The notes under the pieces are model-generated. The model did not search any database and was not told the DNA's origin. It saw only the letters and a program-made list of their open reading frames with translations. From Folioceros fuciformis (taxonomy: Eukaryota), in contig JBNGIO010006406.1 of assembly GCA_049999805.1 (NCBI GenBank), positions 1 through 64,000 on the forward strand: DNA of 64,000 nucleotides. Direction: 5' to 3'. Of this stretch, positions 36,247 to 39,200 are shown piece after piece. Position 1 is the stretch's first letter; each line of letters opens with the position of its first letter. Position numbers and translations under genes: made by a program.

Positions 36247-39200
36247 ATGTCTATGGCAAGTGGTGATTGCACCCTTGCAGGGGCTTTAGGGAGCACGGAG
36301 GATGATCTTATACTGTTGACAGATGGCAAGGTAGCATGGGTCCCAGAAACTTCTTCGATTAAGGTTAAGAATGAGGATCGGGACAAGAAGGAGAGGGAAA
36401 GAGATGGCTGGAGCCCGAGTGCAACTTCATCCCTTCTTGATGCATTTGGGGAGAAGTATGCAAAGGTACAAGGTGGTCATCTCCGGATAAAAGATTGGGA
36501 GGAGCTTACTAGTGCTGTCAATGCCCGTTGCAACGGAGAGCGGTCTCCCAAAAGTGTAGATCAGTGTAAGAATAAGGTTGACTCCCTCAAGAAACGCTAC
36601 AAGTTGGAAAGATCGCGAAACCGAAGATCGGCATCTGGCAAGATCATCAGTGTCTGGCCTTGGTTTGAGAGGCTGGATGGTCTGATTGGTCATATAGCAC
36701 AAGGAAGCTTGCTTGGACAGCAAGCCGCCAGTAGTGGCAGCGGTGCAGGCAGCAGATTGAAGACTGCAGCGAGGTCCTCGCCAGACAGGGACAGAAAAAG
36801 GAGGAGGAATGATACAGATAGCAAGCAAATTTCCAAGGCTCAGCTCAAAAAGGAGGTCAACTTAGTCAAGCAAGTGCCAGAGCAAGCCCACCTGAGACGA
36901 GCAAGTACAATAACCTTCCTGTTTTCGTTTAAGACGAGTGAAAAGGAAGTCGCCATGCACATTTGAAAGTGGGTTACGCACATCGTAATTCTCATTGTCT
37001 GACTAGCGTGGTTTACAGGGACTTGACCAAGATGTCAGTGAATCAGAGGAGGAGCAAGATGATCGAGTAATGTGGGAGCTTTCAGCACTGACTCCTCTAG
37101 ATGGGCGCTATGCCCGCAAAGTGAAGAAGCTGAGGAAGATCTTCTGCGAGCATGGGCTTATATGCTATCGTGTATTTGTCGAGGTTCTGTGTTATCCTGT
37201 GCTGTTCTGTGGTTTTCCTTCAAGCTGTTGAATGAATGTCCCTCCCTCTGATGGACAGCTCGTTGACTGACAAGCATTTTGCTGTCGCGGAGGTTGACAG
37301 TACAGTTGCTTATTCAGTTGCCATTTGCAGGTCCGGTGGCTCCAGATGCTCTCACAACTCCCTGAAATAAAGGAAGTGCCAGCATTCAGCTCAGAGGCGA
37401 GACTCATTCTGGAAGAGACCATCTCTAGTTTCAGCGTGGAGAGTGCTCTTGCCGTGAAGAAGGTGGAGAGGATGATGAATCATGATGTTAAGGCTGTGGA
37501 ATATATATTGAAAGAAAAATTCAAGGCCCATCCTGAGTTGTCCAAGGTCAGATGGCTTCGCTGGCAATTCCACATTTCCTCATTGTCGACTCTATTCCGT
37601 TGGTTAACCGTCTCTCCTCGTCGCCGTTCTCAGGTGGTAGAGTTTGTACACTTTGCTTGCACATCAGAGGACATCAACAACCTGGCACATGCGTTGATGC
37701 TCAGAAATGCACTCCACACTATCATGCTCCCTGCGATGGACAGGGTCATTGCGGCAATACGGTCACTTGCACATGAATATGCAGGGATTCCAATGATCTC
37801 ACGTGTGCATGGCCAGGTATATCTCCTACAGAGAAAATATTTGCAGTGGCTGTACCTCAACATGATGCTTGTTTTGATATTATTGCAGATGTCGTCGCCA
37901 ACGACTTTAGGGAAAGAGATGGCGAATTTCTGCTTCAGGTTACATGAACAACGTGAGGAAGTTGCCAAGGTGAAGATAAAAGGAAAAATGGCTGGAGCGG
38001 TCGGAAACTTCAACGCCCATGTTGTTGCTTATCCTGAAATCAACTGGGAGATAGTTGCTGAGGAGTTTGTTACGTCACTGGGCATCAGCTTCAATCCCTA
38101 CACGACACAGGTTGTCTGCTCACCCGCAACTATGTGAAGTCTGTAAAAGGCTCAAGCTTCTTTAGAGAGTACCATGTGAATGCTCCTGTTGTCGGCAGCT
38201 GCTATTAAAAATTAAGCATGCCTTCTCCGTGCAGATTGAGCCACATGACTATATTTCACAGCTGTTCGACGACATATCACGCTTCAATACCATTTTGCTG
38301 AACTTCGACAGAGATGTTTGGGGATATGTATCTTTAGGTTATTTCCGACAGGTTGTCGTTGTCTATTTCATCATTGGCTGCAATGTCAGGCTCATCATCC
38401 CGCAATACTGACAATCAACTTTGACGTGGCAGCGACTGTTGCCTGGTGATGTGGGAACCGCAGCCATTTTGGCAAAGGCCAGTCCTATCGATTTTGAAAA
38501 CAGCGAGGGTAACTTGGGGATGGCTAATGCGAACTTCCTGCACATGAGCTCGAAACTACCTGTTTCGCGCTGGCAGGTCTCGATTGATTTTTGGACTTAC
38601 CAGGGAGTGTATAAGTGAGCTGAGCGCCTTCAATGTGATTTCGTTTGCATGCTTTTGCAGCAACTTACGAACAGAATTTGTGGGTGGGTTGTCCTTTCCA
38701 GCAAGACAAGTCCGAATCCACAGTCCTCCGGTACATGGGTGTGGGTCTTGCGCAGTCATTGATTGCATATGGAAGTACACTTAGAGGAGTGAGCAAACTG
38801 CAGGTCGGGCCCTCTCTCTCCCTGCACCTCCACCGCGAGTTTACTGTTTTCGTCGTGACTTGCCTTGTTCAGCCCTCTTAGCAAAAAAGGATCCTTGCTT
38901 GCAGGTGGATGAATCGCGGATTCACGATGATCTGGCAACGTCATGGGAAGTTATGGCAGAGCCGATTCAAATAGTAAGTTGTTCAGCTGTCTGCCGCCTA
39001 TTGAGGCGTGAAGGGGTACAGCATGCAGACTAAGTTTAGGTGTGGCAAACCTGTAGATGATGCAGAAGTATGGGATCGAAAGCCCGTGCGAAAAGCTGAT
39101 GGAGCTCACGCGTGGCCAGGCAATCACGAAGGACAGTATGCACCATTTGGTCCAGTCATTGAATTTGCCGCCTGAAGCCAAGGAGCGCCTTCTTCTCCTC

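Follow-up and report, generated by a model that had tools for sequence, protein, structure and literature searches.

A single 10-exon gene in the window (the window being, throughout, the whole 64,000-nucleotide stretch of Folioceros fuciformis contig JBNGIO010006406.1 analysed here) joins a Myb/SANT-like trihelix domain, encoded by exon 1, to an E. coli-type adenylosuccinate lyase (ADSL), encoded by exons 2-10, in which the catalytic signature loop has been rewritten. The gene runs from 36247 to 39251 on the forward strand and comprises 688 codons without an internal stop in a hand-built model checked by script. In at least four related organisms a single mRNA carries both parts, and the gene is not dead, its frame being maintained in the relatives. 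Judged from its sequence, the ADSL domain probably no longer performs the lyase reaction on adenylosuccinate (S-AMP) or succinylaminoimidazolecarboxamide ribotide (SAICAR). We lean, at a little better than even, towards reading the protein as a lineage-restricted trihelix factor whose ADSL domain would serve as a non-catalytic tetramer scaffold and possibly as a nucleotide sensor.

Residue numbers follow the E. coli chains of PDB entries 2ptr and 2pts, in which the first Ser of the signature is residue 295, as the preliminary description of this stretch had correctly stated, and the His of THGQ is residue 171. Between G294 and P304 the fusion protein carries S295T, S296A, T297A, M298I, P299L, H300A, V302A and N303S, with K301 kept; outside the loop, THGQ has become RVHGQ, which aligns to 2pts positions 169-173 and contains T170V. 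The canonical signature GSS[TAM]MPHKVNPIDFE is found in 236 of 236 motif instances from 240 related proteins, and the fusion deviates from it. The loop likewise fails to match GSSxMPxKxN, the PROSITE form of the superfamily signature (observed canonical form, GSS[TAM]MPHKVNP).

The concentration of changes in the loop was measured against 97 aligned canonical ADSL domains, of which 6 are halves of two-domain models from Rosaceae and 91 are unsplit proteins. The sample is biased, since the unsplit proteins come largely from bacteria and were picked for matching exon 7. The fusion keeps 138 of the 168 columns that are at least 95% conserved and alters 30, and these altered columns make up 8 of 10 in the loop versus 22 of 158 elsewhere (Fisher p=1.5e-5). 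Seven of the eight altered loop residues are invariant in 97/97 aligned ADSLs and the eighth, T297, is present in 94/97; Thr at position 295 occurs in none of the 97 and in none of the 236 motif instances. A focused loss of catalytic-loop residues beside a preserved nucleotide site, as first proposed from the sequence, is thus borne out by the wider comparison.

Ser295 has been proposed as the catalytic base and His171 named as the acid (PMC2917274). The same source gives as succinyl contacts Asn N303 and the Lys of the loop, which is K301 by offset, proposes the Thr before the His (T170) as a further one, and lists the Arg and Tyr of DGRY, Asn309, Ser340 and Arg344 as AMP (adenosine monophosphate) phosphate contacts (PMC2917274). 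We infer the E. coli equivalents of the S. aureus contact residues from such offsets. By this mapping the fusion has Thr in place of the base Ser and retains the acid His; two of the succinyl/fumarate contacts are replaced (T170V, N303S) and K301 is kept; and equivalents of the AMP phosphate, ribose and adenine contacts R15, Y16, H91, D92, T122, S123, Q247, N309, S340 and R344 are all present, as are those of N90 and E308 and the motifs DGRY, NHD, ACTSED and TTQ. The features that had been described as retained (DGRY, NHD, TSED, the general-acid His, the loop Lys and the S..R pair) are all correct by alignment.

Changes at invariant positions are found beyond the loop as well: S10T, S28C, T89M, R335Q, L337K, T338S, D339E and N345Y. 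A second cluster of altered invariant ADSL residues (T, V, R, R, Y and K replaced) lies in the C-terminal domain at fusion residues 624-639 (window 38956-39101, exons 9-10). The preliminary description had the loop and RVHGQ right and quoted strings that are indeed present (the loop at 38454-38486 in exon 7, RVHGQ in exon 4, and a 14-residue stretch that a 125-nt intron divides into 38568-38576 and 38702-38734); it missed T89M, R335Q/L337K/D339E, N345Y and the cluster at 624-639, and the interval it gave, 38433-38740, takes in the loop but leaves RVHGQ outside.

The evidence that trihelix and ADSL belong to one transcript comes from assembled contigs of four runs (X1, X2, X3, X7), whose RNA status was a guess that we accepted since the contigs skip introns. 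The X1 contig, 2956 nt long and with 0 other letters, extends from upstream of 35800 via every junction to 39297; by this contig the 5' untranslated region (UTR) reaches approximately 396 nt beyond 35800, and the ATG at 36247 is the first start codon after a stop in the exon 1 frame. X2, X3 and X7 represent three further organisms and studies, are approximately 90-95% identical, and skip all nine introns at the predicted sites. Because the spliced contigs of four organisms share the in-frame exon 1-exon 2 joint (36900|37019), the trihelix and ADSL parts lie on one mRNA, as the earlier claim of a fusion required. This joint excises an in-frame stop of intron 1 (36964-36966) that would terminate a stand-alone trihelix open reading frame (ORF). 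The frame is open through all 10 exons, in keeping with the intact frame first described, and the 9 introns (8 GT-AG, 1 GC-AG) have a mean length of 104 nt. An internal in-frame ATG in exon 2 stands just ahead of the ADSL core, where bacterial PurB proteins begin, and could yield an ADSL-only product from another transcript, though no such transcript was seen. A second X2 contig matches only two conserved ADSL islands (window 37632-37699 and 38717-38788), and the flanking residues that its loose ends encode are different; it probably derives from another ADSL gene transcribed in that relative, possibly the canonical one.

Domain assignment is consistent along the gene. The exon 1 domain belongs to the trihelix (GT-factor) family by its match to PF13837 (E=3.1e-14, 53.6 bits vs a cut-off of 27), exons 4-6 match PF00206 (Lyase_1) and exons 8-10 match PF08328 (ASL_C), the architecture of an ADSL; every ADSL exon can be aligned to PDB ADSL chains or to canonical ADSLs, and exon 7 taken alone matches no Pfam family at E<=0.1. 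Point changes that keep the frame, at least 11 of them at the nucleotide level, separate the loop from the canonical codons, and a frameshift origin is rejected on that account. No RNA editing that would restore the loop was seen in the X1 transcript, which is identical to the DNA there, and no hidden alternative exon with a canonical loop was found in the window, where tblastn of canonical ADSLs matches one place per segment. Coordinates are collected in Table 1.

Table 1. Positions in the window of the parts of the trihelix-ADSL gene
Feature	Position	Strand	Content and evidence
5' UTR	35800..36246	+	X1 contig positions 397-1497 match 35800-36900, 0 other letters
Exon 1	36247..36900	+	218 codons: N-terminal region, trihelix domain, basic stretch KRRRN, linker; junction 36900|37019 in X1, X2, X3, X7
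Myb/SANT-like trihelix DNA-binding domain, residues 53-144	36403..36678	+	Pfam PF13837 Myb_DNA-bind_4
Intron 1, GC-AG (GCAAGT...CAG), 118 nt	36901..37018	+	Skipped in contigs of all 4 runs
Exon 2	37019..37183	+	Acidic linker and ADSL start LTPLDGRY; R15/Y16 equivalents kept
Exon 3	37331..37546	+	ADSL domain 1; NHD motif kept, T89 to M
Exon 4	37634..37816	+	ACTSEDINN kept, RVHGQ at end; Lyase_1 E=6.5e-13; corresponds to PDB 2pts 115-173
RVHGQ	37802..37816	+	Exon 4; V (T170V) 37805-37807, H171 equivalent 37808-37810
Exon 5	37889..38110	+	GAVGN and TTQ (Q247 equivalent) kept; most plant-like exon
Exon 6	38235..38351	+	Gene model, Pfam, spliced contigs
Exon 7, holds signature loop	38433..38576	+	Corresponds to PDB 2ptr 289-334; X1 contig identical, 0 other letters
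Rewritten signature loop, 11 residues	38454..38486	+	Exon 7; S295T onward
Exon 8, opening with the last 11 residues of the intron-split stretch	38702..38803	+	R335Q, L337K, T338S, D339E, N345Y; S340, R344 kept; ASL_C E=1e-7
Exon 9	38905..38973	+	Gene model, Pfam, spliced contigs
Exon 10 and stop codon (39249-39251)	39057..39251	+	Pfam ASL_C E=3.7e-12
3' UTR	39252..39399	+	X1 contig ends 39297; relatives' contigs extend to 39365-39399

Comparison with the relatives shows a maintained coding frame. X2, X3 and X7 have 0 gaps in every listed coding piece, and along the contigs of X1, X2 and X3, 174 nt separate exon 7 from exon 10, so the length of exons 8 and 9 is unchanged. The coding sequence carries a single indel, 3 nt inserted in frame behind 39247, just ahead of the stop, in X3 and X7; gaps number 4, 11 and 17 in the last pieces, where the 3' UTR is included, with every listed indel other than that insertion falling in the 3' UTR, and a 182-nt piece of X7 spanning intron 7 has 5 gaps. 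Codon-level comparison covers 36247-36756 (the first 510 nt of exon 1) and the first 40 of 182 difference rows; of the 18 differences listed there, 13 are synonymous changes at third positions (p=8.5e-4), and within the Myb domain R126 is the one codon among the listed differences that changes a residue, the rest being synonymous. The trihelix domain is under purifying selection. Since the listed coding pieces of the relatives are free of indels, which abound in the UTRs, and since most substitutions in the trihelix exon leave the residue unchanged, the gene is not dead. Exon 7 as a whole differs at 8-9 sites in the relatives, fewer than the changes that a canonical loop needs, and the relatives' loops must therefore be non-canonical too.

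The origin of the ADSL part was traced with an exon 5 search, which brought ADSLs of liverworts, mosses, lycophytes, ferns, gymnosperms and angiosperms, and with a tree of 48 selected homologue rows. The fusion domain falls inside the land-plant clade, with a Shimodaira-Hasegawa-like approximate likelihood ratio (SH-aLRT) support of 98 versus the 11 bacterial rows; its end branch is long (0.73 vs a median of 0.23), and its basal placement within land plants is not settled by the tree. Its identity to moss, liverwort, lycophyte, fern and seed-plant ADSLs is 61-63%, and that between canonical ADSLs from different lineages is 62-68%. Approximately unbiased (AU) tests, on groups picked after viewing the tree, were compatible with grouping with the moss clade (p=0.175) or with the basal ADSL P0139 (p=0.20); a position sister to the Sphagnum-cluster ADSL P0134 alone was rejected (p-AU 0.0145). 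By its sequence relationships, the ADSL domain is descended from a land-plant enzyme.

For exon 1 the closest relative is P0241, a 245 aa protein 70% identical over query residues 1-214, which, like the unspliced ORF here, reads beyond the exon end into partly conserved intron-like codons. This suggests that the more distant relative has the same exon 1 boundary. A tree of 150 trihelix domains was poorly resolved, placing the fusion and P0241 alone on a long stem and giving no support to descent from a type joined to UMP kinase.

The fusion, the focused loss in the loop and the maintenance of frame together favour a conserved, apparently non-catalytic domain. Where a canonical plant ADSL has a plastid transit peptide ahead of its enzyme fold, this protein has the N-terminal trihelix and the basic stretch. 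Judged from sequence, the ADSL fold is complete and its AMP-type nucleotide pocket kept, and what has been lost is the mobile Ser-rich loop that supplies the catalytic base and closes over the succinyl/fumarate half of the substrate, together with two more succinyl contacts, T170 and N303. Because ADSL-family proteins are obligate tetramers, the domain is probably the part through which a trihelix transcription factor oligomerises, presenting four DNA-binding domains. The basic KRRRN stretch and lack of a transit peptide predict a nuclear protein; plant purine synthesis is plastidic. The retained pocket may let DNA binding or the choice of partner respond to a purine nucleotide. That it does bind an AMP-like nucleotide and modulates the factor is a possibility to which we give somewhat less than an even chance. 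More tentative still, and on the unlikely side, is the full proposal of a purine-sensing transcription factor of one early-diverging land-plant lineage, in which AMP, S-AMP, SAICAR or phosphorylated aminoimidazolecarboxamide riboside (AICAR-P) would be the ligand and the tetramer would gate DNA binding by four trihelix domains, so that nuclear gene expression would follow nucleotide status.

This reading of a trihelix factor with a non-catalytic ADSL body must be tempered by several observations. X1 possibly has the same source as the window and would then not be independent of it. Constraint on the ADSL exons may be moderate rather than strong: X3 differs at 52 of 1044 sites in exons 2-7 (about 5.0%), a rate close to the ~4.5% of the 5' UTR (20 differences listed over 447 nt) and above the ~3.3% of the trihelix exon (17 listed over its first 510 coding nt), and for the ADSL exons it was judged by the absence of indels and by overall divergence, with codon-level scoring on the exon 1 part only. 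Preservation of the pocket is a judgement from sequence alone. Weak or altered chemistry is also possible, given a Thr hydroxyl at the position of the base and intact K301, H171 and E308.

The strongest competitor, which we still consider rather unlikely, keeps the tetramer and drops the ligand: the ADSL domain would be retained purely as a stable tetramerisation body for four trihelix domains, its nucleotide pocket a leftover. A structural role calls for conservation across the whole fold, and 138 of the 168 conserved columns are kept; ligand binding is a proposal only; and R335Q and the C-terminal cluster beyond the loop may also degrade the pocket. Such a role would, however, lead one to expect drift in the pocket, and all the listed AMP phosphate, ribose and adenine contacts are kept beside a heavily rewritten loop.

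It is improbable, in our assessment, that the protein is still an enzyme, whether a bifunctional lyase and DNA-binding protein working with a Thr base or a lyase-fold enzyme with a new substrate. The hydroxyl retained by Thr and the intact H171, K301, E308 and nucleotide site would allow this; superfamily members have changed their chemistry, and a trans-aconitate decarboxylase among the weak PDB matches to exon 4 indicates that the fold can change reaction; and the trihelix-UMP kinase relatives keep an apparently canonical kinase (P0242 scores 282 bits against TIGR02075, cut-off 243.9). Against it stand the altered loop positions themselves, which include M298, P299, H300 and N303, all invariant in the 97 aligned domains, the change at T170, and the lack of Thr295 in any canonical ADSL examined; moreover, with its transit peptide replaced, the protein is unlikely to be located where plants make purines.

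We give little weight to the idea of a young chimeric gene heading to decay, transcribed and spliced but with an effectively neutral ADSL part. Its lineage restriction, long end branch and an ADSL exon divergence close to that of the 5' UTR would fit, but the listed coding pieces of three other organisms have no frame-breaking indels where UTRs and an intron have them frequently, the altered ADSL columns are clustered rather than spread among 138 intact ones, and P0241, with only 70% of exon 1 residues identical, shares the exon end and the first intron codons, so that the gene is not very young. Least credible of all is that two genes lie side by side, the trihelix gene closing with the stop at 36966 and the ADSL paralogue beginning at the exon 2 Met, with the fusion an artefact of assembly or read-through: the exon 2 ATG is suitably placed and an X3 contig runs beyond 36895 with letters unlike the window (possibly unspliced), but in all 4 runs, from four organisms, the GCAAGT...CAG intron between 36900 and 37019 is removed with its stop and the frame kept.

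The gene appears to be lineage-restricted as far as the searches reach. No other trihelix-ADSL fusion or rewritten loop was found in a search of 5.8 billion proteins, in a search of 1.84 billion representatives or in two metagenome scans, all of which are subject to length and word limits and represent spliced eukaryotic genes poorly. An exon 7 search for longer proteins gave 4558 matches, of which 120 were listed, the best being Rosaceae two-domain models (~1000 aa) and bacterial PurBs; none of these best 120 has a rewritten loop. The exon 7 metagenome scan gave relatives of at most 69% identity and no rewritten loop among the best 80 of 452. With exon 1, a search for longer proteins returned 3 matches, all trihelix plus UMP kinase; a UMP kinase part was present in 13 and an ADSL part in none of the best 150 representatives, and the exon 1 metagenome scan showed no trihelix-ADSL fusion. 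Nor does the protein occur among the database proteomes annotated for mosses, liverworts, lycophytes and ferns. Among the Rosaceae models of ~1000 aa (P0001-P0003, P0124, P0126-P0129), the three examined (P0001-P0003) hold two complete canonical ADSL domains in tandem; either annotation has joined neighbouring duplicates into one model, or these are genuine double-domain proteins.

In fold and domain order the ADSL part resembles the canonical land-plant enzyme (E. coli-type PurB; Lyase_1 and ASL_C), with the identity, acid His and nucleotide site described above; it differs in its rewritten loop, in T170V, in having a trihelix where the transit peptide would be, and in its long end branch. 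The layout of the whole protein has its nearest counterpart in the trihelix-UMP kinase proteins of ferns and flowering plants (P0121-P0123, P0242, P0245, P0248), which after P0241 are the best-scoring relatives of exon 1, with 40-50% identity over the domain. These proteins likewise place an N-terminal SIP1-type trihelix before a bacterial-type nucleotide-metabolism enzyme fold, but theirs is a UMP kinase that scores as canonical, where the fusion carries an ADSL. The window holds no UMP kinase (PF00696/TIGR02075) match, tblastn of P0121 and P0122 finding the trihelix part only. The Arabidopsis member of this group is presumably At3g10030. At3g10030 is described as a SIP1-clade trihelix gene with a mutant phenotype (PMC4783932) and has binding data from DNA affinity purification sequencing (DAP-seq; bioRxiv 10.1101/2021.01.07.425699). 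Sequence-specific DNA binding by the fusion is putative, argued from purifying selection on its domain and from the DAP-seq data of this SIP1-clade relative. The role of the kinase domain in trihelix-UMP kinase proteins is apparently undiscussed in the searchable literature.

Reuse of pseudoenzymes as regulators is known, and inactive members of the fumarase/argininosuccinate lyase (ASL) superfamily exist. One of them is delta-1 crystallin, the inactive argininosuccinate lyase paralogue of the bird lens, which is a stable tetramer without catalysis, as we propose for the fusion; unlike the fusion, it is a bulk structural protein with an intact signature loop and no DNA-binding domain fused to it. 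Closer to a sensor role are B. subtilis PurR (phosphoribosyltransferase fold) and yeast Gal3 (galactokinase fold), in each of which a non-catalytic enzyme fold reads a pathway metabolite for transcription, but their folds and lineages are unrelated to the fusion, for which a ligand is only proposed. What is new here is an ADSL fold joined to a plant DNA-binding domain, for which the searchable literature offers no match: no work was found joining 'trihelix' with 'adenylosuccinate lyase', and searches on 'adenylosuccinate lyase' with 'pseudoenzyme', or 'trihelix' with 'uridylate kinase', returned unrelated work only.

Were a purine intermediate sensed, the fusion would tie plant transcription directly to purine metabolism and give a reason to ask what the enzyme domain of the conserved trihelix-UMP kinase proteins does; taken together with those widespread proteins, it would point to a general plant design that wires a SIP1-type trihelix to nucleotide-metabolism folds. 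Were the domain a scaffold only, it would still be a clean natural case of catalytic-loop loss via point substitution with the fold preserved.

The remainder of the window is eukaryotic in character, with short spliceosomal introns, copia elements and giant pentatricopeptide repeat (PPR) genes. The mean intron length of ~104 nt, the two giant intronless PPR ORFs described below, the basal placement of the ADSL domain and the lack of the protein in the annotated proteomes named above suggest a non-seed land plant, tentatively a hornwort on genome features. A tRNA-Arg gene (anticodon CCT) lies at 39694-39767 (-), ~440 nt 3' of the stop codon of the fusion gene. It is followed by an AT-rich block at 40000-42200 (27% GC vs ~48% around it), interrupted by runs of N, with two minus-strand ORFs (40842-41279, 41506-42180) that have similar Cys-rich C-terminal stretches; the block may represent a repeat or an insertion, or reflect faulty assembly. 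Two giant uninterrupted ORFs, at 7500-11258 (-) (1252 aa) and 48727-53019 (-) (1430 aa), encode PLS-class PPR proteins with E or E+ motifs, of the kind linked to organellar RNA editing. A 1203-aa SMC protein (SMC_N and hinge) is encoded at 19489-23100 (+) in one uninterrupted ORF, unusual for a plant nuclear gene of that size. Copia-type long terminal repeat retrotransposon ORFs (gag, integrase, RVT_2) lie at 55597-58821 (-) and 60033-60896 (+), and other ORFs with Pfam matches are EAP30/Vps36 at 2440-3045 (+), a pectinesterase with PMEI at 5519-6742 (-) and an F-box/Kelch protein at 12098-14632 (+).

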